Both the position numbers and the translations under genes were made by a program. Shown here piece by piece: positions 2,297 through 47,434 of a stretch of 64,000 nucleotides of DNA. The stretch's first letter is position 1; every line of letters begins with the position of its first letter. The stretch lies in the sequence record MW269952.1, one strand, 5' to 3'. The notes under the pieces are model-generated. The model searched no databases, had not been told where the DNA came from, and saw only the letters and a list, made by a program, of their open reading frames with translations. Origin of the DNA: Escherichia phage P479.

Positions 2297-2539
2297 ATGG
2301 AAACATTAATTGCGGGTACTGTTGTTCTTGGGGCTGGTTCTTTCTTCCTGGCTGCACTGACATATTTTCTGCCGTGGATTATCGCGCTGCTGCGTGGTAC
2401 CAAAAGTAATTGCGGAATCTTCTTTGTTAACCTCCTGTTAGGTTGGACAATGGTCGGATGGTTTATTGCATTTATCTGGGCACTCGTTGCTGAACGTAAA
2501 TCAAACGCACAAGTAATTATCATCAAGGAAGCAAAATGA
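2297..2539 (+). CDS. imm: Superinfection immunity (Imm)-like small membrane protein
   Basis: 80 aa, two TM helices, GW..AFIWAL motif; sits directly after gene 43 as T4 imm does. Confidence 0.6.
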   Translation: METLIAGTVVLGAGSFFLAALTYFLPWIIALLRGTKSNCGIFFVNLLLGWTMVGWFIAFIWALVAERKSNAQVIIIKEAK

Positions 2540-2679
2540 AGATAATTACAATTATTGTACTGATTGCATTTTTTAGTATGTCAATCTACTGGGCAATAAT
2601 GACTCCACATATGATTCCAACTTTAATTTTGGGTTGGGTATTTTTGGGGCTCCAAGCCCGCTATGAATGTTTTAATTAG
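2536..2679 (+). CDS. small membrane protein (47 aa)
   Basis: ATGA overlap with imm stop; hydrophobic; same AGGAAGCAAAATGAA initiation context as the next gene; not in ORF track (<60 aa). Confidence 0.4.
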   Translation: MKIITIIVLIAFFSMSIYWAIMTPHMIPTLILGWVFLGLQARYECFN

Positions 2680-2687
2680 GAAGCAAA

Positions 2688-3191
2688 ATGAAAAAGTTAG
2701 CTATCGCAGCTGTTATGCTGCTATCTGGTTGTGCTTACCAGGGCGATGTTGTTAATGCCAACGAGATTGGTAAAGCGCGAATTGCTGCAGACCGTCAGGT
2801 GCACAATGGTTCCTTTGATTTCAAAGGTGGTACTGGACTTATCTACAAACGCGACAACAATCAATGTGGAAACAACTGCGCGAAATATGCTCAACAAGAA
2901 ATTGAGTACAAACGCGAGCAAGCTGCGAAGCATGACGAAATCATTGCCAAGCTGGAAGCAGAAACCAAGCGACAAAATGACCTGGATACTGTTAACCAGA
3001 TTTCACAGGTCTGCATGTCATACATCAATATGCAGATAAACATCATGCGCGCAGAAGCTTATCAGGCAGCAGAGACGGGTTCTCCAAAAGCTAATGAGTA
3101 CCGCGATATGTATCAGCGTTCTGCTCAAAACCGTCTGAGCTATATTAATAAATGTGTAGCTAAAGAGAAAGCACGCCAAGGTATTAACTAA
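2688..3191 (+). CDS. putative lipoprotein
   Basis: Signal peptide with lipobox LLSGC; RBS-spaced ATG. Confidence 0.6.
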   Translation: MKKLAIAAVMLLSGCAYQGDVVNANEIGKARIAADRQVHNGSFDFKGGTGLIYKRDNNQCGNNCAKYAQQEIEYKREQAAKHDEIIAKLEAETKRQNDLDTVNQISQVCMSYINMQINIMRAEAYQAAETGSPKANEYRDMYQRSAQNRLSYINKCVAKEKARQGIN

Positions 3192-3212
3192 ACAAACTGC
3201 GAGAAGAATATT

Positions 3213-3341
3213 ATGATTGGTATGTTATTGATTAGCCTATGGTTGTTGTCTGCATTTGGTATTGGTTTTATGTACTGGTGGGACAAACGTCAGACCCGGA
3301 AGATTGTTGAACGTGCAATTAATCGTGGATTCAATCGTTAA
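3213..3341 (+). CDS. small membrane protein (42 aa)
   Basis: RBS GAGAAGAATATTATG; single TM helix; below ORF-track cutoff. Confidence 0.35.
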   Translation: MIGMLLISLWLLSAFGIGFMYWWDKRQTRKIVERAINRGFNR

Positions 3342-3420
3342 TTGCTCTGAAAATACAGTGATATAATTATCCTATCTTAAACCTGTGAGAAAAATATAAT
3401 GGTGCCTATGGAAAAAATGA

Positions 3421-4599
3421 ATGTCTATTGCAGATTTGAAATCCCGTTTGATTAAAGCTTCTACATCCAAAATGACCGCGACTCTTACCAAGTCCAAGTT
3501 TTTTAATGATAAAGATGTAGTTCGTACAAAAATCCCGATGCTGAACATTGCAATCAGCGGTGCACTAGATGGTGGTATGCAGTCAGGTTTGACTATTTTT
3601 GCTGGTCCGTCAAAACACTTTAAATCCAATATGGGTTTAACGATGGTCTCTGCATATATGAACAAATACCCCGATGCAATCTGTTTGTTCTATGATTCAG
3701 AATTTGGTATCACAGAAGCATATCTTCGTGCAATGAAAGTTGACCCGGAACGTGTTATCCACACGCCAATCCAGTCGGTTGAACAATTGAAAGTTGATAT
3801 GGTTAACCAGCTTGAAGCAATTGAGCGTGGTGAAAAAGTCATTATCTTTATTGACTCAATCGGTAACATGGCGTCGAAAAAAGAAACAGAAGATGCGATG
3901 AACGAAAAAGTTGTTGGCGATATGACTCGTGCTAAATCCCTGAAATCTCTGTTCCGTATTGTTACTCCATATTTTAGCATCAAGGATATTCCTTGTGTCG
4001 CGGTTAACCATACAATCGAGACGATTGAGATGTACAGTAAAACCGTTATGACCGGCGGTACAGGTGTTATGTATTCCGCGGACACCGTATTCATTATCGG
4101 TAAACGTCAGATTAAAGAAACTGGTAAAGAACTTGAAGGCTTCCAATTTGTTCTGAACGCCGAAAAATCCCGTATGGTCAAAGAGAAAAGTAAATTCTTC
4201 ATTGATGTAAAATTCGATGGGGGTATTGACCCGTATTCTGGCCTGCTTGATATGGCAATGGAAATCGGATTTGTGGTGAAACCAAAAGTTGGTTGGTATA
4301 ACCGTGAATATCTTGATGTTGAGACCGGTGAAATGGTCCGCGAAGAAAAATCATGGCGTGCAAAAGATACTAACTGCACCGAATTCTGGGGCCCGCTGTT
4401 CAAACACGAACCTTTCCGTGATGCAATCAAACGCCATTACCAACTGGGTGCAATCGATAGCAATGCTGTTGTTGATGCCGAAGTTGATGCGCTTATTGCT
4501 TCCAAGGTTGAAAAATACACTGCTCCTGAAGGTAAGACAAAACCGTCCGCTGCAGATATCGAAAACGATTTAGATATGATGGAAGACCTTGATGAATGA
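3421..4599 (+). CDS. uvsX: UvsX RecA-like recombinase
   Basis: 392 aa; N-terminus MSIADLKSRLIKAS and Walker A GPSKHFKS match T4 UvsX; acidic C-terminus. Confidence 0.93.
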   Translation: MSIADLKSRLIKASTSKMTATLTKSKFFNDKDVVRTKIPMLNIAISGALDGGMQSGLTIFAGPSKHFKSNMGLTMVSAYMNKYPDAICLFYDSEFGITEAYLRAMKVDPERVIHTPIQSVEQLKVDMVNQLEAIERGEKVIIFIDSIGNMASKKETEDAMNEKVVGDMTRAKSLKSLFRIVTPYFSIKDIPCVAVNHTIETIEMYSKTVMTGGTGVMYSADTVFIIGKRQIKETGKELEGFQFVLNAEKSRMVKEKSKFFIDVKFDGGIDPYSGLLDMAMEIGFVVKPKVGWYNREYLDVETGEMVREEKSWRAKDTNCTEFWGPLFKHEPFRDAIKRHYQLGAIDSNAVVDAEVDALIASKVEKYTAPEGKTKPSAADIENDLDMMEDLDE

Positions 4600-4933
4600 T
4601 ATCGATTTATCTGATTTAGATAATTTCGAGAAAGATGCGGAGGGAGCTAAGGCTCCTTCTGTACCTTACTACGAAAAAAGTTTGGAGATTATCCGGCAAT
4701 CCATGGGAACTGTGCGACAGGAAATTCTGTTATCACTCCCTGATGGGTCCAGTCACATTGTGTACGTAACCGGAATTAAAATTGAACCATCTGGAAAAGT
4801 TTCAGTTGATTTCGGCACCCCTTCTGAAGACCGCAAAGCGGAGCTTGCAGTGCATGTAGAAAAGTGTGTTACAATGCAAATACAAGATGAAATTGATAAG
4901 ATTAAAATGAAAAAGAGGTGGTGGAAGTGGTAG
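4589..4933 (+). CDS. 40: gp40-like protein (head vertex assembly chaperone in T4)
   Basis: 114 aa between uvsX and 41; assignment by position and size. Confidence 0.5.
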   Translation: MMNDIDLSDLDNFEKDAEGAKAPSVPYYEKSLEIIRQSMGTVRQEILLSLPDGSSHIVYVTGIKIEPSGKVSVDFGTPSEDRKAELAVHVEKCVTMQIQDEIDKIKMKKRWWKW

Positions 4934-6357
4934 AAACTATTTTATCCCAGCTACTCTTTAACAAGGAATATTTTGTTAAAGTCTGGCCATATCTGAATAA
5001 CACATATTTTGAAAAGGGTCCTGCAAAGACCCTTTTTAATACGATTAACGAACACGTAAAAGAATATCAAGCGGTACCAACTAAGACTGCACTTGATATC
5101 GCGCTCGACAGTTCTGACCTTTCTGAAGTCGAATATGAAGGCACAAAGAAACTCTTAGGAGTCCTGGCCGATACACCAGAAGACCAGGAATGGTTGGTTA
5201 AAGAAACCGAGAAGTATGTACAGAAGTCTGCGATGTTCAATGCCACATCCAGGATTATCGAAATCCAGAGTAATGCCGAACTTCCGAAAGACAAACGTGA
5301 TAAACGAATCCCGGATATTGGTGCCATCCCTGACATCATGCGCGATGCATTGTCTATCTGTTTTGACTCTGCTCTGGGCCATGACTGGTTAAACGATTAC
5401 GAAGCTCGATTCCAGACTTATCTGAACAAATCGAAGAAGGTTCCGTTCCGTATTAACATCCTGAATAAAATCACAAAGGGTGGGGTTGAGTACGGTACAG
5501 AGAATGTTTTACTGGCCGGGACGAACGTCGGCAAATCCCTTGGACTTTGTTCGTTAGCCGCTGACTATCTTCAGACTGGTCATAATGTGCTTTATATAAG
5601 CATGGAAATGGCTGAAGAAGTATGTGCCAAACGTATTGATGCCAACTTGCTGGATGTATCTCTGGATGATATTGATGAAGGTCATGTGTCATGGGCAGAA
5701 TACAAAAGTAAGATGGAAAAATGGCGCGCAGCAGGGACTCTTGGGACTCTGAAGATAAAACAATATCCAACTGGTGGTGCTCATGCGGATACCTTCCGCG
5801 CATTATTGAATGAATACAAACTGAAGCAAGGGTTTGTGCCGGATGTGATTATTGTTGACTACCTGGCAATCTGTGCAAGCTCAAGACTGAAAACGTTTAC
5901 CGAAAACAGTTACGGTCTGATTAAGATGGTTGCAGAAGAACTTCGTGGTCTGGCGGTCGAGAAAAATGTGGTCCTGTGGACTGCAGCACAGACAACCAGG
6001 GGTGCGAACGTTGCAGCTGAGATTGATATGGCTGACATTGCAGAATCCTTTGGTATTGCTCACACGGCCGACTTTATGTTGGGTGTTGTTGAGACCGAAG
6101 AATTCGCTCAAATGGGACTACAGTTAATCAAACAACTTAAGTCTCGTTATGGCGATAAGAACTACTATAATAAATTCAAGATGGGTGTTAAGAAAGGTAA
6201 TCAGCGCTGGTACGAGGTTGATGATGATTCAGCTCCTAAACAAGGCTCTACGGTTAAAGAAGCCACTGGTGAGATGAATCGCCAGGCTGAAATGAATAGA
6301 CAAACCAGGGTCAACAGGAGCGACCTGGACGACCTTGCTGCTCAAATGAAATTCTAA
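4918..6357 (+). CDS. 41: gp41 replicative DnaB-like helicase
   Basis: 479 aa; Walker A GTNVGKS; RecA-like core; T4 gp41 is ~475 aa. Confidence 0.92.
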   Translation: MVEVVETILSQLLFNKEYFVKVWPYLNNTYFEKGPAKTLFNTINEHVKEYQAVPTKTALDIALDSSDLSEVEYEGTKKLLGVLADTPEDQEWLVKETEKYVQKSAMFNATSRIIEIQSNAELPKDKRDKRIPDIGAIPDIMRDALSICFDSALGHDWLNDYEARFQTYLNKSKKVPFRINILNKITKGGVEYGTENVLLAGTNVGKSLGLCSLAADYLQTGHNVLYISMEMAEEVCAKRIDANLLDVSLDDIDEGHVSWAEYKSKMEKWRAAGTLGTLKIKQYPTGGAHADTFRALLNEYKLKQGFVPDVIIVDYLAICASSRLKTFTENSYGLIKMVAEELRGLAVEKNVVLWTAAQTTRGANVAAEIDMADIAESFGIAHTADFMLGVVETEEFAQMGLQLIKQLKSRYGDKNYYNKFKMGVKKGNQRWYEVDDDSAPKQGSTVKEATGEMNRQAEMNRQTRVNRSDLDDLAAQMKF

Positions 6358-6376
6358 AGACCTTCGGGTCTTTTTC
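6356..6376 (+). terminator. intrinsic terminator, UUCG tetraloop (after gene 41)
   Basis: AGACC-TTCG-GGTCT then TTTTT. Confidence 0.65.
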
Positions 6377-6384
6377 ATTTTAGA

Positions 6385-6446
6385 GGTTTACATCACCATA
6401 AAAAGGGTGTACTATTATCCCATCAACTACTGATGAGGATAATAAA
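6385..6446 (+). promoter_or_regulatory. early promoter-like cassette, degenerate copy
   Basis: GTTTACA and GGTGTAC then conserved leader CCATCAACTACTGATGAGGATAATAAAATG; -10 spacing atypical. Confidence 0.4.
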
Positions 6447-6695
6447 ATGTTATTAGTTAATGTGCATTACCAGTTCAAATCTGAAGAAGCTCTCCAAAAG
6501 TATGCTGATATTTGTGAGCATAATAAAAGAACAGCTGCCATTGTTGGTCTGAAGCCTTTTAAAATTTTGGATTGCTCCTTGAACAGAGCAAGGCGCTGGT
6601 GTAGTGTTGCCTGTCATGCTTCAGTTGAAGGGAATGATTATTTTTTCATTACTTTCAATGCACAAGATTTTCATTTAATTAATGAATTAAAATAG
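6447..6695 (+). CDS. hypothetical protein (82 aa)
   Basis: ORF preceded by conserved leader CCATCAACTACTGATGAGGATAATAAAATG. Confidence 0.55.
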   Translation: MLLVNVHYQFKSEEALQKYADICEHNKRTAAIVGLKPFKILDCSLNRARRWCSVACHASVEGNDYFFITFNAQDFHLINELK

Positions 6696-6750
6696 TGTAC
6701 AAGCCCCTTGTCTTAGGACATAATGATTTCATATTGAGTTACACAATAAA
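6691..6750 (+). promoter_or_regulatory. early promoter (GTGTACA, 17 bp, CATAAT) plus leader box
   Basis: GTGTACA 6696-6702, CATAAT 6719-6724, box CATATTGAGTTACACAAT. Confidence 0.6.
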
Positions 6751-6773
6751 CCAACTGTTAAAAGGAAAACCAT

Positions 6774-7076
6774 ATGTTTAATCAAACCGACATGAATCGT
6801 TACTATTTTGGACAATTCGCTCGCCGTGATGAAAACTGTGCTGCTCTTATCGCATCAGGCATTCAAACTGGTAAATTAATAAAGCTCAAAAGCGATGTTC
6901 AACCTTCATCTGTTCGCAGCTCTCTTCGTGAATATCTGCTTGCAGGCGGTGAAGTATATGTTATCGCTGAACCTTTTGTTAATGTGTGCGATGATTACAC
7001 AATTAGTGTGACTGTTATGCACCCAACTACTGGGAAAATTCGTTGTCTGACTATGCACAACTATGAGTTGGCATAA
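6774..7076 (+). CDS. hypothetical protein (100 aa)
   Basis: ORF with upstream promoter cassette and RBS AAAGGAAAA. Confidence 0.55.
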   Translation: MFNQTDMNRYYFGQFARRDENCAALIASGIQTGKLIKLKSDVQPSSVRSSLREYLLAGGEVYVIAEPFVNVCDDYTISVTVMHPTTGKIRCLTMHNYELA

Positions 7077-7085
7077 GTGAACAAA

Positions 7086-7137
7086 GGGGCTTACAGCCCC
7101 TTTTTCTTATGTTATAATGACCCTATCAACTACTGGA
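7086..7137 (+). promoter_or_regulatory. stem-loop with embedded -35, then TATAAT and leader box
   Basis: Hairpin GGGGCTTACAGCCCC (CTTACA in loop), TATAAT 7114-7119, box CCTATCAACTACTGGAG. Confidence 0.55.
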
Positions 7138-7144
7138 GAATAAA

Positions 7145-7462
7145 ATGAAAACCATTGATTGCAAGGCAGAATACAAAGTTTATTATCATGGGTCAAGCTC
7201 TAATGCTGGAATCCAAAATATGCTTTGTCCTCCTGATGCAACTGGTGTTCTGTCAGAAGTTGGGCGTAAGAAAAATTTAGGGCGTGTGTTTTTTACTGAA
7301 GATATTGGTTTGGCGCGTATCTATGCAGGAAGAGCAGCTCGCTCATATGGAGGAGAACCCCGTCTTTATCGTGTGATTGCACCTGTTGACGTGGTTTGTT
7401 TAAATGATACTAAAGGCGCAACAGTTTATCATGCTGCCTGGGCGTTTTGTGAGGAAATCTAA
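7145..7462 (+). CDS. hypothetical protein (105 aa) with YHGSS motif
   Basis: ORF with RBS GGAGAATAAAATG; H-G-S near N-terminus plus conserved Y and C-terminal EE. Confidence 0.55.
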   Translation: MKTIDCKAEYKVYYHGSSSNAGIQNMLCPPDATGVLSEVGRKKNLGRVFFTEDIGLARIYAGRAARSYGGEPRLYRVIAPVDVVCLNDTKGATVYHAAWAFCEEI

Positions 7463-7666
7463 ATGTATAAATTAGAGAACGTAGTGTTTATTGGTTGGTT
7501 TGAAAATGGCAATATGTTTACCAAAGAAACTGCGCTGGATGTCAGTGACAAAAATATGATTGAATGGGTTACAGTGCAGTATGCAGAAGTGAATAATGCG
7601 CTGGTTAAAGCCTTTGTTAATGATAATAAAGTTTTTGAATATGATTATCGTTCTAACGAAAAATAA
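7463..7666 (+). CDS. hypothetical protein (67 aa)
   Basis: Start abuts the stop of the 7145 ORF (TAAATG). Confidence 0.5.
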   Translation: MYKLENVVFIGWFENGNMFTKETALDVSDKNMIEWVTVQYAEVNNALVKAFVNDNKVFEYDYRSNEK

Positions 7667-7668
7667 CA

Positions 7669-7721
7669 GTTTACATCAAAGGGATAATGCTGTATATTAT
7701 CCCTATCAACTACTGAGGAGA
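7669..7721 (+). promoter_or_regulatory. early promoter plus stem-loop cassette
   Basis: GTTTACA 7669-7675; stem GGGATAAT...ATTATCCC over the -10; box TATCAACTACTGAGGAG. Confidence 0.6.
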
Positions 7722-7726
7722 TTGAA

Positions 7727-8020
7727 ATGAAAAAGTTATTAATCGCAGCAATTCTTACCGTAGCATCATGTGGTACAGCTCCAGTTACTGCTGGACTTGA
7801 TAAAGACCTTTGTGAGTGGTCTATGACCGCCGACCAGACTGATGTTGAACATCAGATTTATGCTGATATCATGAACATTACTAAACGTGACCGTCCAGAT
7901 ATGGTTAAAGAAGTATCTGACCAACTGGCTTCTGGTGACGTTATGCAGTATAACTATGTTCTGTATTGCGATGCTTCATTTGACAACAGCAAGATTGTTC
8001 AATGGGTTACAGGTGAATAA
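7727..8020 (+). CDS. putative lipoprotein
   Basis: Signal peptide with lipobox VASCG. Confidence 0.55.
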   Translation: MKKLLIAAILTVASCGTAPVTAGLDKDLCEWSMTADQTDVEHQIYADIMNITKRDRPDMVKEVSDQLASGDVMQYNYVLYCDASFDNSKIVQWVTGE

Positions 8021-8021
8021 A

Positions 8022-8459
8022 ATGATTAACAGAACTTTAGTTATCAAAAAACTTCGTTGTAAAAATCAAAATGCACAAGCATACAGGATGTTTTGGAGCG
8101 ACGAAATTCAATACCTGGGTTATTTTCTTGTTGATAGTGATAATAGAATTACGTTTGCTCATAAACTTCTTAACAAAGAATTAAACCATTGGCAAGAACT
8201 TATTGCGGTCAAGTCTAAATTATTTTCGCGCAATACAATGCACCAATTGGTTTATTTTTTCGCTGACGGTATTCCCGACAAGGTTGAGTTTGACGGGTTT
8301 GAATTTAAAGACATCAACCCTGATAATGAATTGAATGGCAGTATTGTTAATATGGGTATCCCAGGTAAGTACATCAAAAACAGTCTTTTGAAACTTCTGG
8401 AAACCCCTGTTTATTCAGTTGATGACCAGATTTTTAATGCCTTCATGAAGCGAGATTAG
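8022..8459 (+). CDS. hypothetical protein (146 aa)
   Basis: In-frame ATG at 8022 just after the previous stop (track ORF starts upstream at 7887); C-terminus DDQIFNAFMKRD. Confidence 0.5.
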   Translation: MINRTLVIKKLRCKNQNAQAYRMFWSDEIQYLGYFLVDSDNRITFAHKLLNKELNHWQELIAVKSKLFSRNTMHQLVYFFADGIPDKVEFDGFEFKDINPDNELNGSIVNMGIPGKYIKNSLLKLLETPVYSVDDQIFNAFMKRD

Positions 8460-8460
8460 T

Positions 8461-8817
8461 ATGAGTTATTATAATTTTCTGAATTTTGAACTGGCGAGCA
8501 ATAATGATGGTAATGCCCATTATGAATTCCGTGAGCCTCGGTTTAATCAGGCGATTGGTTATATTATCGTCAAAGATGATGTTATCATAAAGGCTCGCTC
8601 ATTCATGGTAATGAATGGACCTTATGAAGATACTCGCGGCTATCCATTTGATAAAAAGAATGTGCGCGATTGTGCAGCATGGATAACCGGAAACCCTGAA
8701 ATTGGGGTCATGATATCTACTGAAGCGAATGACATTCTGGAAGGGGTCGTCAAAGCTCAAGAACCGCCTACTGATATTGATGACCAGATTTTTAATGCCT
8801 TCATGAAGCGAGGTTGA
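8461..8817 (+). CDS. hypothetical protein (118 aa)
   Basis: ORF; C-terminus DDQIFNAFMKRG encoded by a 36-bp copy of the preceding gene's 3' end. Confidence 0.5.
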   Translation: MSYYNFLNFELASNNDGNAHYEFREPRFNQAIGYIIVKDDVIIKARSFMVMNGPYEDTRGYPFDKKNVRDCAAWITGNPEIGVMISTEANDILEGVVKAQEPPTDIDDQIFNAFMKRG

Positions 8818-8818
8818 T

Positions 8819-9040
8819 ATGTATGTTTTGACCCAATTCTCTAAAGCAATATATAGTTACTCTTGCCAGTGGGAAGTCTTTATTGATACCCCTTCGCCTA
8901 AGTATGGTGTTTTTGGGCGAGTAACTACGCAAGCTTACGTTGCGCGACCGACTAAACGTCAGATTCGTAAACTTAAAAAGGCACATCGTCAATTGATTAA
9001 AAGAAGGGAACAATATGAGTGCAATGTGTACGGGCTCTAA
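8819..9040 (+). CDS. hypothetical basic protein (73 aa)
   Basis: ORF, Lys/Arg-rich C-terminal half. Confidence 0.45.
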   Translation: MYVLTQFSKAIYSYSCQWEVFIDTPSPKYGVFGRVTTQAYVARPTKRQIRKLKKAHRQLIKRREQYECNVYGL

Positions 9041-9206
9041 GATTTCTGTCTTCCAGATTTTTGAAGAATATGAAATCGTGTCGCAAGACCAAGAAGCAAT
9101 CCATGTTATCGCTGATGATGGGGTTACCTGGATTATTCCGTTGTATCATGAAGACACTTATGAAGTGACTGATGCAAATGGTGATAAAGCTATCTTCGTT
9201 GTATAA
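9015..9206 (+). CDS. hypothetical acidic protein (63 aa)
   Basis: ORF overlapping the previous one. Confidence 0.4.
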   Translation: MSAMCTGSKISVFQIFEEYEIVSQDQEAIHVIADDGVTWIIPLYHEDTYEVTDANGDKAIFVV

Positions 9207-9209
9207 ATA
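9202..9209 (+). promoter_or_regulatory. late-promoter motif TATAAATA upstream of the 9226 ORF
   Basis: Exact TATAAATA 17 nt before ATG 9226. Confidence 0.4.
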
Positions 9210-9225
9210 GCGGAAAGGGGGTGTT

Positions 9226-9393
9226 ATGAAAACATTCAAAGATTTTATCAACGAAAATATGGTTGCCGGTGATGCAGGTGGAAACCCAACTAATATCGCA
9301 ACAGGTACCACTTCCGGGGCAGTTGTCAATAAAGGCCCTGAACAAATCCCATCAAAAAAGCGTAAGAACAAAGACGATAAACCTACAGTATAA
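9226..9393 (+). CDS. hypothetical protein (55 aa), possibly late-expressed
   Basis: RBS AAAGGGGGTG; exact TATAAATA 17 nt upstream; not in ORF track. Confidence 0.4.
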   Translation: MKTFKDFINENMVAGDAGGNPTNIATGTTSGAVVNKGPEQIPSKKRKNKDDKPTV

Positions 9394-9410
9394 TGGTCCT
9401 TCGGGGCCAT
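9393..9410 (+). other. imperfect stem-loop before gene 61
   Basis: ATGGTCC-TTCG-GGGCCAT, one mismatch, no T tract. Confidence 0.35.
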
Positions 9411-9425
9411 TGAAATGAGGAAACT

Positions 9426-10454
9426 ATGTCATATATTGATAAAGAATTTGCAGTCAGAGCTTTATCGTATCAACCACGTTATAGAGAAGTCACCGGGAGC
9501 ACATTTAAAGCAAACTGTCGTTGCAAGGTTTGTGGGGACTCCCAGAAAGATTCACACAAGGCTCGATTCTGGGCGTATACTAATCCGGCTGATGGCGCGG
9601 TTTACGTGAAATGTTTTAACTGTGACTACTCCACGCATATAAGCAAATACATAAAAGAGTTTGAGCCTGATTTACACCGGGAATATATGGTTGAGAAGTA
9701 CAAGGAGAACGCCTTCGGGCGACAACGTAATGAAGTTGCAGAAGCTCCGAAAGAACCAGAAAAAACTCCGGTTATCGAACAGCTTGCTTTTTGTGAAAGA
9801 CTCGATACTTTACCAGAAGCACATCCGATAGTTAAGTATGTAAAAAGTCGATGTATTCCAAGCAATGTTTGGAACCGACTATGGTTTACAAACCAATGGC
9901 CTGCATTAGTTAACTCCGTTAATCCTGGGACGTATAAGAATGAAACGAATGAACCACGCTTGGTTATTCCTATCTTCAACGGCAAAAAAGAAATCGAATC
10001 TTTCCAAGGACGAGCTCTTCGCAAAGATGCACCACAAAAATATATCACAATCAAAGCTCACCCAGAAGCTTCCAAAGTCTATGGCGTAGACAAGATTGAT
10101 GAGCGTAAACGCGTATGGGTAATGGAAGGTCCGATTGATAGTTTGTTTATCCCTAACAGCATTGCGATAACTGGTGGAACATTGTCATTGGAAGCCGTTC
10201 CTTATCCAGAAACCAGAGTATGGGTAATGGACAACGAACCAAGACATCCGGATACGATTAAACGTATGAAGAAGCTCGTTGAAGCTGGCGAAGCTGTTAT
10301 GTTCTGGGACAATGCACCATGGCATACGAAAGACATAAATGAGATGGTTAAATCAGAAGGAGCAACCCCTGAACAAATCGAATCATATATGGCCGATAAC
10401 GTTGCTCAAGGATTGATGGCGAGAATGCGACTTTCGAAGTACGCAAAAGTTTAG
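9426..10454 (+). CDS. 61: gp61 DNA primase
   Basis: 342 aa (same as T4 gp61); zinc ribbon CRCKVCGD...CFNCDYS; TOPRIM-like EGPIDSL. Confidence 0.9.
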   Translation: MSYIDKEFAVRALSYQPRYREVTGSTFKANCRCKVCGDSQKDSHKARFWAYTNPADGAVYVKCFNCDYSTHISKYIKEFEPDLHREYMVEKYKENAFGRQRNEVAEAPKEPEKTPVIEQLAFCERLDTLPEAHPIVKYVKSRCIPSNVWNRLWFTNQWPALVNSVNPGTYKNETNEPRLVIPIFNGKKEIESFQGRALRKDAPQKYITIKAHPEASKVYGVDKIDERKRVWVMEGPIDSLFIPNSIAITGGTLSLEAVPYPETRVWVMDNEPRHPDTIKRMKKLVEAGEAVMFWDNAPWHTKDINEMVKSEGATPEQIESYMADNVAQGLMARMRLSKYAKV

Positions 10455-10651
10455 GAAGGGATTCCGGTAAAGTAACCGATGATGGAATGGATATGTTCCA
10501 TTGTGACCTGGAGTAAGTGTACCCCTTGTGTTGCAGCGATAGGCACAACCAGTAAGTTCCACAGGAAAACATCAAGAGCTAAAAAGCCCATGATGAGCTT
10601 CTTGTCTTTCTTACTGGTTAATTTCCAAATCTGATAGAATAATGTTCCCAT
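10451..10651 (-). CDS. small membrane protein, paralog A (66 aa)
   Basis: Minus-strand ORF; TM helix LWNLLVVPIAATQGVHLLQV; paralog of 10660..10857. Confidence 0.5.
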   Translation of the reverse strand: MGTLFYQIWKLTSKKDKKLIMGFLALDVFLWNLLVVPIAATQGVHLLQVTMEHIHSIIGYFTGIPS

Positions 10652-10659
10652 AGTTCCAC

Positions 10660-10857
10660 CTATATAAGGCCGATTAATGCCAGTGAAACATCTACAACTG
10701 ATTCGAGCGCGACGACTGGTAATATAACACCATGTGCCATTGCAACTGGAGCAACAATGAAGTTCCAGAGTAGAACTAAACAGAGTACCGAAAGGACCAG
10801 AATCGTTCGCTTACGACTGCCTTTGATGGCTTGAATTAGACTAGATAGTTTTAGCAT
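10660..10857 (-). CDS. small membrane protein, paralog B (65 aa)
   Basis: Minus-strand ORF; strong RBS GAAAGGGGGA; late-promoter-like CATAAATA upstream; TM helix LWNFIVAPVAMAHGVILPVV. Confidence 0.55.
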   Translation of the reverse strand: MLKLSSLIQAIKGSRKRTILVLSVLCLVLLWNFIVAPVAMAHGVILPVVALESVVDVSLALIGLI

Positions 10858-10873
10858 ACATCCCCCTTTCTTG

Positions 10874-10881
10874 TATTTATG
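10874..10881 (-). promoter_or_regulatory. late-promoter-like CATAAATA (minus-strand membrane protein pair)
   Basis: 7/8 match to TATAAATA 17 nt upstream of ATG at 10857; strong RBS follows. Confidence 0.4.
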
Positions 10882-10941
10882 CTTTAAACCAATACGATAT
10901 AATTAACATACAAACAACATGAATTGATAAGGAAAAATATA

Positions 10942-11457
10942 ATGGCTCATTTTAATGAATGTTCTCAACTGATTGCTGGTGTTGATAAAGCTCAGGGCGC
11001 TTATGATAATGCAATTTTTGAAGGCACTGACCCACTGCAAGTTATGCTTGATATGCAGAAATCATTGCAGGTTCGTCTGGCTAATGACCGTGATTATTGC
11101 TACCATCCAGATAAATTAGCGACTGCTGGTGATGTTGTTGCTTGGATGCGCGAACAAAAAGACTGCATTGACGATGAATTCCGTGAACTGATTACTTCAT
11201 TGGGTGAAATGTCTAAAGGTGAAAAAGATGCATCTGCTGTCTGGAAAAAATGGAAGGCTCGTTATACTGAAGCGCAAGCTAAACCAATTTCAGAAATGTC
11301 CCCAGAAGACCAGCTTGAAATTAAATTTGAATTAATTGATATCATGCATTTCGTATTCAATATGGCTATTGGTTTGAATATGTCTGCGGAAGAATTGTTC
11401 AAACTGTATTATCTGAAAAATGCCGAGAACTTTGCGAGACAGGACCGTGGCTATTAA
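10942..11457 (+). CDS. 56: gp56-like nucleoside triphosphate pyrophosphatase (dCTPase/dUTPase family)
   Basis: 172 aa from ATG at 10942 (track starts at upstream TTG); all-alpha MazG-like pattern; T4 gp56 is ~171 aa; position between 61 and soc. Confidence 0.7.
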   Translation: MAHFNECSQLIAGVDKAQGAYDNAIFEGTDPLQVMLDMQKSLQVRLANDRDYCYHPDKLATAGDVVAWMREQKDCIDDEFRELITSLGEMSKGEKDASAVWKKWKARYTEAQAKPISEMSPEDQLEIKFELIDIMHFVFNMAIGLNMSAEELFKLYYLKNAENFARQDRGY

Positions 11458-12103
11458 GGCAAGATTTCATAGGACGTATATAATTAAAGTTAAAACGCCG
11501 AAAGGCGTTTTTTGGTATGGTGGTAAACACGAAACCAATGTACTAGACCCATATAAAGACCGATATTCAGGCTCCGGAAAAATACTCTGGAACATATATA
11601 AAAAGTATGGAGTCAAATATCAAATTCGCTGGTTTGTTGGTCACCAGAATAGGGAAATGGCGTTTGAACATGAAAGATATCTAATATCATTATTAAATTC
11701 TAAACATGGTTCAAACTGTATTAATATTTTACCTGGTGGGCAGGGCGGAGGCGGATATGAATGGACTGATGAAATGAAGTTGGCCCAAACACTACGTTTA
11801 AATAAGCCCGAAACTAAAGCTAAAATGAAAAGCGCCCAATGTGTTGCTCAAAATCGCCCTGAACGCAAATCCAGACAATCAAAAGCAATGAGCGAGTTTT
11901 ATGCAAATGGTGGAAATAAAATCGTATCAGAAGCCACATCTAAAGCGCAAAGAACTGCAGCTCATTGGCATGAACCATTGAAAAGTGAAATCTATCAGAT
12001 TTGGCTTTCATTAGGTAAACCCGGTGGAGCTTCTGCTGTGGTTAAAGCACTTAAGGGAAAATACGAAACAACCCCCAGCGCACTTAAACTTTTAATATAT
12101 TAA
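11420..12103 (+). CDS. GIY-YIG homing endonuclease (Seg-like)
   Basis: YIIKVKTPKGVFWYGG ... YSGSGK resembles Seg proteins; start overlaps last 38 nt of gene 56. Confidence 0.65.
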   Translation: MPRTLRDRTVAIKARFHRTYIIKVKTPKGVFWYGGKHETNVLDPYKDRYSGSGKILWNIYKKYGVKYQIRWFVGHQNREMAFEHERYLISLLNSKHGSNCINILPGGQGGGGYEWTDEMKLAQTLRLNKPETKAKMKSAQCVAQNRPERKSRQSKAMSEFYANGGNKIVSEATSKAQRTAAHWHEPLKSEIYQIWLSLGKPGGASAVVKALKGKYETTPSALKLLIY

Positions 12104-16954: not shown

Positions 16955-18279
16955 TTAAATTTGAAGACTTGAACACAGGACAAAAAGAAGCTTTTGATTA
17001 TATCACTGAAGCTATTCAGCGACGTTCAGGGGAATGTATCACTCTGAATGGTCCAGCTGGTACAGGTAAAACTACTCTGACAAAATTTGTCATTGACCAT
17101 TTAGTGCGTAATGGAGTTATGGGAATTGTGCTTGCTGCACCAACTCACCAGGCGAAAAAAGTTTTATCTAAATTGTCTGGTCAAACAGCGAATACAATCC
17201 ATAGTATCTTGAAGATTAACCCGACCACATATGAAGACCAAAACGTTTTTGAACAGCGCGAAATGCCTGATATGTCAAAATGTAATGTTCTGGTTTGTGA
17301 TGAAGCGAGTATGTATGACGGGTCTCTGTTTAAGATTATTCTTAACTCTGTTCCTGAATGGTGTACTATTCTTGGGATTGGTGATATGCACCAGCTGCAG
17401 CCAGTTGACCCAGGAAGCACACAACAAAAGATAAGCCCATTCTTTACGCATCCTAAGTTCAAACAGATTCATCTGACTGAGGTCATGCGAAGCAATGCTC
17501 CTATCATTGAAGTGGCGACAGAAATTCGTAATGGTGGCTGGTTCCGTGATTGTATGTATGAAGGTCATGGCGTACAGGGGTTTACCTCACAAACCGCTTT
17601 AAAGGATTTCATGATAAACTATTTCGGTATTGTAAAAGATGCTGATATGTTGATGGAAAACCGGATGTATGCTTACACGAATAAATCAGTTGAAAAACTG
17701 AACAATATTATTCGTCGCAAGCTCTATGAAACGGATAAAGCATTTTTACCGTATGAAGTCCTGGTTATGCAAGAGCCGCACATGAAAGAGCTGGAATTTG
17801 AAGGCAAGAAATTCAGCGAAACCATTTTTAATAATGGTCAGTTGGTTCGCATCAAGGATTGCAAATACACTTCCACCATTCTCCGTTGTAAAGGGGAATC
17901 ACACCAGTTAGTGATTAATTACTGGGACCTGGAAGTTGAGTCAATTGATGAAGATGAAGAATATCAGGTTGACCGCATCAAAGTTTTACCAGAAGACCAG
18001 CAACCAAAATTCCAGGCATATCTGGCTAAAGTTGCTGACACATACAAACAGATGAAAGCCGCTGGTAAACGTCCAGAGTGGAAAGACTTCTGGAAAGCTC
18101 GCCGGACCTTCTTGAAAGTTCGTGCTCTTCCGGTCAGTACAATCCACAAGGCCCAGGGCGTTTCAGTGGACAAAGCATTCATCTATACTCCATGCATCCA
18201 TATGGCCGAAGCTTCATTAGCGAGCCAGTTGGCTTATGTTGGAATCACACGAGCGAGGTACGACGCATATTATGTATAA
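16951..18279 (+). CDS. dda: Dda DNA helicase (SF1)
   Basis: 442 aa; Walker A GPAGTGKTT; T4 Dda is 439 aa. Confidence 0.9.
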   Translation: MIKFEDLNTGQKEAFDYITEAIQRRSGECITLNGPAGTGKTTLTKFVIDHLVRNGVMGIVLAAPTHQAKKVLSKLSGQTANTIHSILKINPTTYEDQNVFEQREMPDMSKCNVLVCDEASMYDGSLFKIILNSVPEWCTILGIGDMHQLQPVDPGSTQQKISPFFTHPKFKQIHLTEVMRSNAPIIEVATEIRNGGWFRDCMYEGHGVQGFTSQTALKDFMINYFGIVKDADMLMENRMYAYTNKSVEKLNNIIRRKLYETDKAFLPYEVLVMQEPHMKELEFEGKKFSETIFNNGQLVRIKDCKYTSTILRCKGESHQLVINYWDLEVESIDEDEEYQVDRIKVLPEDQQPKFQAYLAKVADTYKQMKAAGKRPEWKDFWKARRTFLKVRALPVSTIHKAQGVSVDKAFIYTPCIHMAEASLASQLAYVGITRARYDAYYV

Positions 18280-43381: not shown

Positions 43382-46300
43382 TTATTCAATCCATTCGAAC
43401 TTAACGGATTTAGTGGTCGGGTCTGGGATGATACGCACGTTACCGATACGCAACCAATCGAGAATGGTTAAGTTCCCCATCGTTGTGTTGTCAGCCGGTA
43501 ATGCACCAACATCCTCTGCAGATGGAGGGTTATCCGCGGTGTAAACCATTGCGAAAGTCGTCCATGCAGATTTATTTTTCTGCCAGGTACGGGTATAACG
43601 AATAGTACCACCGTTCAATCCAGTTGGATAGCAAACCCAATCTTGATAGCACGAATCCAGCGTATTACCGAACTGAGTCAATGTACCAGGATATTTAATT
43701 TGTTTATCACGAACTGAATAGTCAAACCAGGTTCCGCGCAGTTTCTGACCAGAACTACTCAATACTTCGTCACCGAGCGAGCCGTCATCATTACGATAAC
43801 GAATAGCAGGCGAGGCGAAAGTTCCGTTTTCAGTTAACCAACCAGAAGCATTCCAAACTTCATCAGTTACCCCAGCAGGTTTAGTTTGAACTGTATCAAT
43901 GTTTACCTGACGTTTTAACTTCATTGTCCAGTAGCCAGGGAACTGGCTATAAGTCGGTTCATCATTGATATCGACAGACCAGAAGCCAACAGTATCTGCA
44001 GTCGGAGCTTGTGCGATAAGACTTGGTTTCGTACCGAATACACGGACCGGAGCATTCACACGGAGCACACCAGACATTGTATCACCGGCTTGGTTAACAA
44101 AGTTTCTATCTACAATCTCAACAGCGTTTTTCTCGGTCAGGACTTTAAATGCACCGCCACCGTTTGCTATGATATTACCAGCATCAAGAGTTTTAAGCAC
44201 TAAATTCTGCGAGTTATCACCCAGAGCCAGAGTTGCGCCAGAAGCTTCACCCGTCGTGGTTGCAATAGTACGACCATTTAGAACGTAATTATTTTTGGCT
44301 TGAACATCGTTACCGGCGCTGAGGTTGTTCAATACAGCAACATTACCCGAGGCGGTGTTTAATGTCAATACGTTAGTCGTATCGCCAATAGTCATTGTCG
44401 TTCCGGCGGAAGGAGCAGTGATTTTCCACTTGTTAGTTCCGTTAACAACATTCACAGTTCCGAACGTCGAAGTGCCAGCCGTTACATCAGTAAACACTGC
44501 AGTGCTCGTCGATACAACCGGAGCAGAGATATTTGTCTGTTTAGTAAGAGTTAACACACCTTCAACAGTCTGAGCAATATCACGACGAATAAACTGGGTC
44601 GAATCAAGGTTATCCAGTTTTTCAGCATTAACAGCCATCGCATTTATCGGTAAGAAGTTTTGCAATACGCGGTTTAATTCGTAAGGCGAAACCGCATATC
44701 CAGATTTTGCATAGCTAACCAGTTTACTTGGGTCCGGAGTATACACACCATTTGCATATGTAAATCCTGCACCAGTCGTTGTAGTTGCGGCCGAAGTAGC
44801 TGCACCAGAAGATAAACGAACAAATCCACGCAGTGTTTCAGATGCTTCCCAGGTTGTTTCCGTTTGTGCAATATATTTCAGCGCCGACGGACTGATGGCC
44901 AAGACTTTTGATGTGCCTGCTGTTGCTTCTGTGTTTGTCGCGATGCGAACAATACCTTCGGCATTTTCAGTGGCTTTTTTCGACATCAATTTAAGCGGAG
45001 TAACGATTGTTTTATCGTCAGTGCCGGTATTGACTTCACCCTGAGTTGCTAATCTTGCCGTACCACGCTGAGTCTCATTTGCTTCAAGAATATTCAGGCT
45101 ATAATGGTCCCAGAGCGTCCCTGTTTCTACTAAACCACTTAATGCATTAACAGAAGTACGAGCAGTATTATTAAATCTATTTTTAATTTTTAATGGGGTT
45201 GAGATACGAGTATCATCAGTTCCAGTATCAAATTCTGATTGCGTAGCAATCTCGGCTATGCCGGTTAACGTTTCTGATGCTTTACGGTCATTTAACGTTT
45301 TGGGAGTCACAGCTCTGGTATAATCGGTTCCTGCATCTGTTTCAACCTGGGTAGCAATCTCGATTAAACCGATACGGGAATCAAGAGCAGTTTTGCGATG
45401 TAACATTTCTGGAGTAACGACTGCGTTTGCCCATCCAGATTGAGAAGTACCAGCAATTACTTCACTTTCAACCGCAAGAATAACCGCGCCTTGCTGAGTG
45501 TAAGTAGCTTTGTACTGGTCAAGAGCTTTCGGGGAAACAACCAGATTAACCGTATTTTTATTATAAACGTTTGTACCATTTAATTCACGTGAAGCAGCAG
45601 GAGTTGTACCAGTCGTTGAAACGTAAGTTACAATACCAGATAGCGATTCTGAGCCCTGACGCGCTTGCAGTTTCTTTGGAGTGATAATTGTGGTATCATC
45701 TACACCTGCATCGGTTTCTTGCTGTGTGGCGAGTTCTGCGAGCCCACGTCTCGTTTCTGTTGCCGTACGTTCATTGAGTTTTTTCGGGGAAATAATTACA
45801 TCATCAACAAATGCAAAATCACTGTTCTGATTTACTTGAGCAGTCGTTGCGATTCTGGCAATGCCTCGTTGGTTCTCTTTAGCAACACGGTTGGCCAAAG
45901 TCTGAGGGGTAATTGCGAGTTCTTTCTCTGGGTTATTTTCATGGTCAACGTTTGCCTGAGTCTGGTTTGCCAGAGCAATAACACCAAGACGCGTACGCGT
46001 GGAATCATTTAATGAGTCAACCCGTTCAACAGTCGGAACGTTTTGAGCAACAACCCAATAACTTGTTCCAGACACTTCATCTTCTGCATATGACAATTCA
46101 ATAACTGGAGTATAACTGATATTACCATTAAAGGTCAATGAATCAACCATCACCCAAGTTGTATCCGGTGGATACTCGGAACGTTTAGGGAATTGCAGCA
46201 ATTTAATGTCAGATGCAATCTTATCACCAACAGCAGCTCTTATATTAACGGTCTGTGATTTACGGAGATAGTTCAGTGCAATCTTAACAATGTCGCCTTG

Positions 46301-47338
46301 CAAAACATCAGTTGGTAAATCGATATTAATCGTTGCCGGAGTTGAGTTATCTTCGCCAAATACAATGACGCTTTCGTTTGGTAAAAGTTTAACACTGTCA
46401 CGAATAACGCGCAGACGAGTTTTAAAATCACCATCCCAAACATACCAGAGTTTTTCGGCAGCATTATAAACGAAGAAACCATCACCTGTGGTACGGAATT
46501 CCATTTGATGCTGACCAGCTTTACCAAGACTAGAACTGGTGTCAAAGGTTTCAACCATCAGGTGGAACGTTGGTCCCATGCCATCGATATCAACAGATTT
46601 GACAATATCACCCTGGTTTGCATACTTAGGAAGAATGAAAGTAATCGGTGCACCAGTTGTATAACGACGCATAATAAAGTCGCCAGCTTGTGCATGGAAA
46701 CGACCTGTCGATGGTTCTACTCTGATGCCACGTTCTTCGTTGCCAGCTTCCCAAAATTGCCATAAGCGGTTTGAAAAAATAAGCATGTTATAAGAGAATG
46801 GTTTGGTAATTAAAACTTCCGGATATTGATTACCAAAGCGAACAATCTTTTGGTTACCTGCCCCTGGTACGTTGCTTGACTGGATTTTAATTTCATTGTA
46901 ACCAACGTTCCCACCGATATCTTTAATAACGATGGTATCACCATCAACCGGGTTTGGAGGCAATGTAAATGTGGTAAAGCTTGCAGCAGAGTCGACGGCG
47001 ATAAATTCGCCCGAGTTAAGCTGACGAGTTGGAGATGCAACAGTTTCCCATTTAGGGTCAGTACGAGTTGCTAACCAATACTGAGGGGTAAATGCTCCCG
47101 CAGGAGCCGCGATATCACGTTGAGCAACCCAAATACGGTTATCATTAATAACTGCAAAGTTCTTTTTGTATCCGCGTGTTGCATCATATTGTTGAACTGT
47201 GTTTTCTTCTATAAAGAAATCTACGTTAACGCCGTCTGATAAAACTGAGTAATCAGCTTTTGCGACATTAATGACTTTCTCACCAGCAGCATCGAGACCG
47301 GATGTTGCTCTGAATGCTGGTTTTAAAATATCGGCCAT
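43382..47338 (-). CDS. 34: gp34 long tail fibre proximal subunit
   Basis: 1318 aa (T4 gp34 1289 aa); late promoter TATAAATA upstream. Confidence 0.88.
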   Translation of the reverse strand: MADILKPAFRATSGLDAAGEKVINVAKADYSVLSDGVNVDFFIEENTVQQYDATRGYKKNFAVINDNRIWVAQRDIAAPAGAFTPQYWLATRTDPKWETVASPTRQLNSGEFIAVDSAASFTTFTLPPNPVDGDTIVIKDIGGNVGYNEIKIQSSNVPGAGNQKIVRFGNQYPEVLITKPFSYNMLIFSNRLWQFWEAGNEERGIRVEPSTGRFHAQAGDFIMRRYTTGAPITFILPKYANQGDIVKSVDIDGMGPTFHLMVETFDTSSSLGKAGQHQMEFRTTGDGFFVYNAAEKLWYVWDGDFKTRLRVIRDSVKLLPNESVIVFGEDNSTPATINIDLPTDVLQGDIVKIALNYLRKSQTVNIRAAVGDKIASDIKLLQFPKRSEYPPDTTWVMVDSLTFNGNISYTPVIELSYAEDEVSGTSYWVVAQNVPTVERVDSLNDSTRTRLGVIALANQTQANVDHENNPEKELAITPQTLANRVAKENQRGIARIATTAQVNQNSDFAFVDDVIISPKKLNERTATETRRGLAELATQQETDAGVDDTTIITPKKLQARQGSESLSGIVTYVSTTGTTPAASRELNGTNVYNKNTVNLVVSPKALDQYKATYTQQGAVILAVESEVIAGTSQSGWANAVVTPEMLHRKTALDSRIGLIEIATQVETDAGTDYTRAVTPKTLNDRKASETLTGIAEIATQSEFDTGTDDTRISTPLKIKNRFNNTARTSVNALSGLVETGTLWDHYSLNILEANETQRGTARLATQGEVNTGTDDKTIVTPLKLMSKKATENAEGIVRIATNTEATAGTSKVLAISPSALKYIAQTETTWEASETLRGFVRLSSGAATSAATTTTGAGFTYANGVYTPDPSKLVSYAKSGYAVSPYELNRVLQNFLPINAMAVNAEKLDNLDSTQFIRRDIAQTVEGVLTLTKQTNISAPVVSTSTAVFTDVTAGTSTFGTVNVVNGTNKWKITAPSAGTTMTIGDTTNVLTLNTASGNVAVLNNLSAGNDVQAKNNYVLNGRTIATTTGEASGATLALGDNSQNLVLKTLDAGNIIANGGGAFKVLTEKNAVEIVDRNFVNQAGDTMSGVLRVNAPVRVFGTKPSLIAQAPTADTVGFWSVDINDEPTYSQFPGYWTMKLKRQVNIDTVQTKPAGVTDEVWNASGWLTENGTFASPAIRYRNDDGSLGDEVLSSSGQKLRGTWFDYSVRDKQIKYPGTLTQFGNTLDSCYQDWVCYPTGLNGGTIRYTRTWQKNKSAWTTFAMVYTADNPPSAEDVGALPADNTTMGNLTILDWLRIGNVRIIPDPTTKSVKFEWIE

Positions 47339-47369: not shown

Positions 47370-47377
47370 TATTTATA
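47370..47377 (-). promoter_or_regulatory. late promoter TATAAATA (gene 34)
   Basis: Minus strand reads TATAAATA ~32 nt upstream of gp34 ATG. Confidence 0.7.
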
Positions 47378-47434
47378 TTGCTTTAAAAATTTTATGCTAA
47401 TATAATCGAGTCAACTAATTGAACAGAGGTTCAT

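Follow-up and report, generated by a model that had tools for sequence, protein, structure and literature searches.

The closest described relatives of the two genes considered here are the members of the Dam.1 family of T-even phages, namely T4 Dam.1, VR7 ORF033w, RB32 ORF030w and VR25 gp031/gp032, none of which has an assigned function, so that a comparison with them provides a family name but no explanation. The two genes, termed here open reading frame (ORF) A and ORF B, lie on the minus strand of a 64,000-nucleotide stretch of Escherichia phage P479 (MW269952.1), referred to below as the window, between the genes of the DNA primase gp61 and the dCTPase gp56. The phage is of the T4 type and belongs to the genus Gaprivervirus (VR7/SP18 group), and over this region its DNA is 91-93% identical to that of VR26, UPEC01 and TH44. 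ORF A and ORF B share with the Dam.1 family the length of 65-66 amino acids (aa), the position, the strand, the WN...P...G...LP core, the upstream NATAAATA and the ribosome-binding site. However, T4, Mosigvirus and Dhakavirus contain one copy, whereas the phage in the window contains two deeply diverged tandem copies. We propose, with a probability of roughly 65%, that these form a compact late operon of two diverged Dam.1-family membrane proteins, which are stacked alleles and accessory to the phage. The features of the locus, in positions of the window, are:

10660..10857, minus strand (read from 10857 to 10660): ORF A, 65 aa, member of Dam.1 / phrog_2024, promoter-proximal copy
10451..10651, minus strand (read from 10651 to 10451): ORF B, 66 aa, second Dam.1-family copy, its last 4 nucleotides (nt) overlapping the gp61 stop codon
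10874..10881, minus strand (read from 10881 to 10874): late-promoter-like CATAAATA, identical at 7 of 8 positions to T4 TATAAATA, identified by sequence and conservation
10862..10866, minus strand: ribosome-binding site of ORF A, GGGGG (GGAGG in relatives)
10656..10661, minus strand: ribosome-binding site of ORF B, AGGTGG, overlapping the ORF A stop codon
9426..10454, plus strand: gp61 DNA primase, convergent neighbour of ORF B
10942..11457, plus strand: gp56 dCTPase, divergent neighbour of ORF A

An initial annotation, made from the sequence alone, had placed two paralogous minus-strand ORFs for membrane-spanning proteins at this locus, which was confirmed by BLASTP, by the match to phrog_2024 and, as far as prediction goes, by hydropathy. 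ORF A and ORF B align in BLASTP with E=2e-8 and 40% identity over 42 aa, and the pattern LWN..V.P.A...GV.L..V, given in that annotation as common to both, is found in each of them. Both match the profile of phrog_2024, a PHROG family without an assigned function, over essentially the full length, ORF A with E=2.5e-26 (residues 1-65 of 65) and ORF B with E=2.1e-25 (residues 1-64 of 65). Relatives of the A-type were found by tblastn in 692 phage records and those of the B-type in 112. In every genome context read, including T4, T4T, Mosig-, Dhaka-, Marfa-, Kanagawa-, Mosuguk- and Gelderlandvirus as well as Roth20, the gene occupies a slot on the opposite strand that is bordered by gene 61 and by gene 56, dam or an inserted homing endonuclease, and with its 3' end it either adjoins the stop codon of the primase or overlaps it. 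The distant subtypes of the Jiaodavirus-like Roth20, Salmonella phage STP4-a and Klebsiella phage KLB31 are located in exactly the same slot, and both ORFs of the window likewise lie on the opposite strand in the interval from primase gene 61 to gene 56/dam, with ORF B reaching the 3' end of gene 61.

Non-synonymous change is far rarer than synonymous change in all comparisons, with synonymous sites being saturated. The proportions of non-synonymous (pN) and synonymous (pS) differences between ORF B of the window and that of Marfa are 0.15 and 0.92, and the ratio of the non-synonymous to the synonymous rate (dN/dS) is 0.09 between the T4 ortholog and a close relative, 0.30 between ORF A and T4, and 0.13 between ORF B and its VR25 counterpart, the latter based on few substitutions. 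Because of this purifying selection and the synteny, chance ORFs were rejected as an explanation, and by the pattern of their conservation ORF A and ORF B are real genes. A profile search of 1.84 billion representative proteins returned only 15 clusters, all with a length of 33-70 aa, and sequence searches of Pfam, NCBIfam and the PDB with single proteins and profiles gave nothing meaningful. The 487 base pairs (bp) between gp61 and gp56 are filled by the two ORFs and are otherwise non-coding. In the VR25 and VR26 records both ORFs are annotated as hypothetical proteins (VR25 gp031 and gp032), while the VR7 record only contains ORF A (ORF033w), as "similar to RB32 ORF030w". The product of ORF A is 100% identical to an Escherichia phage P479 entry for a hypothetical protein. 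The genes are therefore already catalogued as hypothetical proteins and represent no new kind of element, but a conserved, well-defined and under-annotated gene family of T-even phages that is probably expressed late. That the early region has no other minus-strand coding, as stated in the initial annotation, is essentially correct, since the equivalent 27 kb of VR7 show just one further opposite-strand ORF, a doubtful one embedded in dda.

The selection on the amino acid sequence also bears on the question of whether the RNA could be the selected product, with a late antisense transcript into the 3' end of primase gene 61 helping its shut-off and the ORFs being secondary. The operon converges on gp61 and overlaps its stop codon by 4 nt, an overlap with gene 61 occurs in many lineages, and no convincing terminator follows ORF B on the minus strand, where the search for intrinsic terminators gave only weak matches within coding sequence. 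However, purifying selection on the protein is strong across all subtypes, the WN...P...G...LP motif and the charge asymmetry described below are conserved, in Roth20 the convergent genes do not overlap but have a hairpin between them, and a search of Rfam with positions 10200-11100 gave no match, so that we consider an RNA-level function very unlikely. As a matter of speculation, since no convincing terminator follows ORF B, late transcription may continue in the antisense direction into the end of gene 61, and an antisense effect could exist as a by-product of the operon.

T4 late promoters, which depend on gp55, gp33 and gp45, carry TATAAATA at positions -13..-6. The 7/8 match reported upstream of ORF A is present, with the ATAAATA core intact, and 16 nt separate it from the ATG at 10857, a start-codon distance similar to the 18-35 nt at the other late-type motifs in the window. 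It differs from the T4 late promoters in having a C for T at -13 and in sitting within the early-gene block, pointing against it. The strong ribosome-binding site ascribed to the upstream ORF was found as well, in the form of the G-rich GGGGG. If CATAAATA occupies -13..-6, transcription would start near 10868. On its own, a 7/8 match in AT-rich DNA is weak evidence; the case is made strong by the conservation across lineages, the depletion of the motif and an explained variable first base.

In nearly all lineages examined, the first family gene is preceded by the ATAAATA core, followed by 13-21 nt with a ribosome-binding site of the GGAGG type, whereas the flanking sequences are unalignable, and the core is kept even where the proteins are less than 30% identical. 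NATAAATA was found 13-21 nt before the start codon in Tequatro-, Mosig-, Dhaka-, Marfa-, Kanagawa- and Mosugukvirus, Roth20, KLB31, ESCO47 and the contig L036. The element reads GATAAATA in T4 and PM2, AATAAATA in Mosigvirus and Dhakavirus, TATAAATA in Marfavirus, Kanagawavirus and L036, and CATAAATA in Roth20, KLB31 and ESCO47; the latter form is invariant in five Gapriverviruses, in which the flanking bases vary. In the 64-kb window, NATAAATA occurs 9 times as opposed to about 27 times expected from base composition, a deficit that points to selection against late promoters at unwanted places. Apart from the copy before ORF A, the minus strand has three, and each of these precedes a large minus-strand ORF by 18-35 nt, in a block that we take to be the tail-fibre genes, and one plus-strand copy precedes the soc homolog. 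As a side observation, a perfect TATAAATA is located at 9202-9209 on the plus strand, 16 nt upstream of a gp61.1-like ORF (9226..9393) just before the primase, and may be a late promoter of the early strand. Three further TATAAATA or NATAAATA motifs were found on the plus strand at 24603, 49437 and 54670.

In the late promoters of T4-like phages, the T at -13 shows little conservation (PMC1524935). At this locus, the C can be attributed to the middle promoter of gp56, whose MotA box overlaps the late element on the other strand:

10878..10903, plus strand: MotA-box middle-promoter consensus for gp56, with TATGCTTTA, 11 nt and TATAAT, 38 nt upstream of the gp56 start

The overlap comprises 2 bp, and the C of CATAAATA is the complement of the G in TGCTT. 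The MotA-box pattern has 5 matches on the plus strand of the window and none on the minus strand. The overlap of a late with a middle promoter illustrates neatly, on a small scale, how T-even phages accommodate divergent control signals within about 30 bp. A back-to-back pair of a minus-strand late motif and a plus-strand MotA box recurs at about 47370-47405, with an overlap of a few bases, at a second divergent junction between the large minus-strand ORF 43382..47338, presumably tail-fibre gene 34, and a plus-strand gene at 47435.

On this evidence CATAAATA is likely to be a functional late promoter, and the late-promoter reading of the initial annotation was borne out as very likely. ORF B follows ORF A after a gap of 8 nt. 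No promoter motif for ORF B was found in this gap, and its ribosome-binding site overlaps the stop codon of ORF A; for these three reasons we infer that the two are arranged as one two-gene late operon and are not separately expressed genes. The second genes of the pairs in L036 and L037, two Mosigvirus-like genomes, are similarly coupled.

The type of promoter is of particular importance for the suggestion that the proteins are superinfection-exclusion factors, which block the entry of a second phage's DNA as T4 Imm and Sp do. In T4, superinfection exclusion is established within minutes by early genes. Imm and Sp, like the products of ORF A and ORF B, are small envelope proteins from the same early genome region, but they are located on the early strand and expressed early, as opposed to the opposite strand and the late-type motif observed here. 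The minus strand upstream of ORF A contains no convincing sigma-70 or MotA-type promoter, so that the only promoter present is of the late type. Moreover, the phage has its own early-strand homologs of Imm (2297..2539) and Sp (7727..8020), and the proteins of ORF A and ORF B show no similarity to Imm or Sp in sequence or fold and belong to a different PHROG family. Imm apparently has two membrane helices and Sp a signal-peptide-like N-terminus, as read from their sequences and the record annotations and not by a predictor. Small size, the predicted inner-membrane location, and alleles that are swapped and stacked between phages, which would be compatible with a phage-phage conflict, speak for exclusion; nevertheless, the suggestion fits poorly and is the least probable of the alternatives considered here. 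The Imm homolog in the window (plus strand, 80 aa) is hydrophobic enough for two membrane helices and is followed at 2536..2679 on the same strand by a hydrophobic, gp42.1-like ORF of 47 aa, a further small predicted membrane protein of the early strand.

The membrane topology, a check proposed along with the initial annotation, was predicted from hydropathy, charge and an AlphaFold2 model. The predicted helices are:

10735..10806, minus strand: predicted transmembrane helix of A, residues 18-41, TILVLSVLCLVLLWNFIVAPVAMA, with the WN...P motif, from hydropathy and AlphaFold2
10529..10597, minus strand: predicted transmembrane helix of B, residues 19-41, LIMGFLALDVFLWNLLVVPIAAT, from hydropathy and charge

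The AlphaFold2 model of A, based on an alignment of 20 sequences, contains helices at residues 4-10, 14-41 and 51-62 with a mean predicted local distance difference test score (pLDDT) of 78, the helix 14-41 reaching a pLDDT of about 87-91. A common layout was found in all eight subtypes examined, consisting of a hydrophobic helix of 23-24 residues with Trp-Asn and a Pro five residues later, a G-x-x-(L/V/I)-P turn, and a neutral-to-acidic C-terminal segment of 22-25 residues with a conserved Glu/Asp. The net charge of these subtypes is +1 to +6 in the N-terminal part, which is a variable segment, and -2 to 0 in the C-terminal part; for A it is +5 and -2, respectively. The shared characters of the family, i.e. 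a length of 60-74 aa, a basic N-terminus, the W-N-x4-P helix, G-x2-(L/V/I)-P and the acidic residue, are present in both proteins, with B departing once (P47L). All eight subtypes are therefore predicted to be single-pass membrane proteins, A and B being predicted inner-membrane proteins of about 7 kDa each, and the charge asymmetry indicates an N-in/C-out orientation according to the positive-inside rule. An Asn embedded in the membrane is a classic driver of helix-helix association, and because such a residue lies within the membrane helix, we propose that the proteins may oligomerise or bind a membrane partner.

Such a mode of action is known from T4 T, RI and RIII and from phage 21 S68, late small inner-membrane proteins which act by oligomerisation or helix-helix contacts. 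In this respect the proteins would resemble them, and it could be assumed that A and B are holin- or pinholin-like pore formers, which oligomerise via the Asn and an acidic helix face and permeabilise or depolarise the inner membrane late in infection. They are similar to holins in size and have one or two hydrophobic helices, a polar stripe (E52, S53, D56, S58) runs along the C-terminal helix of A, and the membrane helices of several subtypes are rich in Gly, Ala, Ser and Thr (up to 42%). In a Foldseek search of the AlphaFold2 model against BFVD and the PDB, the only matches were a homolog of the query (E=3.5e-3, above the cut-off of 1e-3) and non-significant helical fragments; the BFVD matches at E<1 consist of this homolog, whose UniProt entry is auto-named "Holin", and an unnamed protein. 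However, no Pfam or NCBIfam holin profile was matched, the best Pfam hit being GTA_holin_3TM with E=0.08 in 2 of 28 members. In contrast to holins, pinholins and antiholins, with which there is no homology, the charged tail is N-terminal and the C-terminus hydrophobic, and the genes are located away from the lysis genes, their neighbours being primase and dCTPase. In T4, mutants of t do not lyse and continue to respire, which counts against a further late protein that would depolarise the membrane independently, and in phage Bas37 the likely ortholog is non-essential (see below). Pore formation is thus an improbable explanation.

With regard to the origin of the pair, a local tandem duplication was rejected. 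In a global alignment ORF A and ORF B are only 25-34% identical, each copy has its nearer relatives among alleles of other genera, and the reverse order is found in other phages. ORF B is 71-79% identical to the single copies of Dhakavirus and Marfavirus and abuts the primase as those copies do, and the highest identity of ORF A to any relative beyond the genus is about 54%. In ESCO47 and a metagenomic (Logan) contig, one NATAAATA promoter is followed first by a B-like gene and then by a Mosigvirus-type A, which borders on the primase. The two-gene operons with this order, opposite to that of the window, are located at 2501-2914 in L036 and at 2501-2894 in L037, and these pairs arose independently of the pair in the window. 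Different subtypes are found within one genus, as in the Gelderlandviruses CGG4-1 and STP4-a and the Kanagawaviruses Q7622 and KLB31, and the surroundings of the locus contain inserted homing endonuclease genes at several sites. The simplest reading of these comparisons is that the pair represents two old alleles which were stacked by recombination between co-infecting phages.

The two copies differ in their state of preservation. ORF A is intact in all Gapriverviruses examined, whereas ORF B was inactivated in at least four ways within the genus: by a 97-bp deletion in SP18-like genomes, about half of the best nucleotide matches, which removes the ribosome-binding site and codons 1-29; by an ATG-TGA nonsense codon and small deletions in VR20 and DK-13; by a +1 frameshift in VR7; and by an endonuclease inserted next to it in DK-13 and RZ. 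Across the genus, ORF B thus appears to be redundant and decaying, with ORF A kept everywhere. ORF B might already be a non-functional remnant in the window, leaving one working gene and a decaying passenger. The independent inactivations in the SP18-like, VR20, DK-13/RZ and VR7 genomes point in this direction, as does a substitution at a near-invariant Pro:

10511..10513, minus strand: codon 47 of ORF B, CTC for Leu; the sister phages and more than 90% of the family have CCC for Pro

However, ORF, start codon and ribosome-binding site of B are intact in the window as well as in VR25, VR26, TH44, TH41 and TH15, and the low dN/dS towards VR25, given above with its few substitutions, also argues against a remnant. 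We regard this alternative as the most serious one, though as less likely than not.

In T4 itself, the ortholog is 54% identical to ORF A and lies in the 309-bp dam-61 gap that is unannotated in AF158101 / NC_000866, at 17738..17938, without annotation in these reference records. It is listed as dam.1 (hypothetical protein) in the T4T record HM137666 (T4Tp032, ADJ39749.1) and in UniRef. No literature mentioning "ORF030w" or "dam.1" was found in the library searched, nor anything on the dam.1 locus in the literature on T4 ribosome profiling, small proteins and transcription-start mapping. As dam.1 is absent from the T4 reference annotation, it is also absent from the T4 gene tables of the genome-wide screens CRISPRi-ART and HIDEN-SEQ. 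In the HIDEN-SEQ transposon screen of Bas37, a close relative of T4, the gene bas37_0144 (201 nt, opposite strand, overlapping the primase by 4 nt) was hit by transposons at 20 of its 24 TA sites and came out as "Non-essential" on E. coli K-12, with no significant change in the two clinical-isolate comparisons displayed (10.1101/2025.11.20.689424). Since this likely ortholog is non-essential, the Dam.1 family appears to be accessory and dispensable in the laboratory.

Taken together, the proposed late operon would work as follows. The gp55-type late promoter CATAAATA, back to back with the MotA-dependent middle promoter of gp56, would drive one transcript with a leader of about 11 nt, which encodes A and, 8 nt later, B, the two probably being translationally coupled. 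The basic N-terminus of each protein would remain in the cytoplasm, the helix of 23-24 residues with its polar Trp-Asn pair and Pro kink would span the membrane, and a short acidic or amphipathic C-terminal helix would be located on the periplasmic side. B would be the resident copy abutting the primase and A a second allele that recombination added upstream of it, at a locus with many homing endonucleases. The proteins would probably act by helix-helix packing through the membrane-embedded Asn, either with themselves or with another inner-membrane protein. Our leading guess as to their function, and a tentative one, is that they tune late events at the envelope, for instance the timing or the inhibition of lysis; next, and held still more loosely, comes a membrane-level counter-defence or an inhibitor of a host protein. 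The lysis-regulator role suggested in the initial annotation is accordingly possible as a role, although the proteins have no similarity to holins, antiholins or spanins, no adjacency to lysis genes, and an N-terminal charged tail.

Several points weigh against this proposal. The late timing is read from a 7/8 motif and its conservation, and the Gelderlandviruses, with TATTAAATA, are the only exception among the lineages examined; the leader of about 11 nt would be short. The C-terminal 19-24 residues of the A-type proteins are hydrophobic (mean Kyte-Doolittle value of about 2.0), and because a second span is therefore conceivable, an N-in/C-in hairpin is an alternative model for these proteins. 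bas37_0144 is assigned as a likely ortholog by position, size and strand, not by sequence. As to lysis, the family shows no homology to lysis proteins and no adjacency to t, e, rI, rIII or the spanins, and we know of no gene at the 61-56 locus that was mapped in the classical rapid-lysis mutant screens.

Beyond the operon, the surroundings of the locus vary between sister phages. The window is about 314 bp longer than VR7 between the ORF049c-like gene and the primase (about 2700-9400 in the window). Downstream of gp56, one further gene was identified:

11420..12103, plus strand: gene of a SegF-like homing endonuclease, so named from its similarity to the VR7/VR26 annotation; it overlaps gp56 at the 3' end of the latter

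No Pfam match at E<=1 was obtained for this gene. Its slot is occupied by a Soc-like gene in VR25, and DK-13 and RZ have other endonucleases between the primase and ORF B.

Overall, the structural part of the initial annotation was supported and sharpened, whereas its functional part found no direct support. T4 is one of the best-studied viruses, and yet a conserved gene, dam.1, is missing from its reference annotation AF158101 / NC_000866. It is conceivable, if doubtful, that Dam.1 is an overlooked late membrane component of the enterobacterial Tevenvirinae, for instance a modulator of holin triggering or lysis inhibition or a counter-defence factor, and that the allele swapping and stacking at the 61-56 locus reflects an arms race. 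On this view, Dam.1 would have escaped both the classical and the genome-wide T4 screens through its absence from that annotation. The family offers testable features in its likely late promoter, predicted topology and conserved polar motif, in the natural knock-outs of B and in the allele stacks in two orders. If it is true that the family affects lysis timing or host defence, it would be a new player in a classical system; otherwise, it would be one more dispensable accessory gene.

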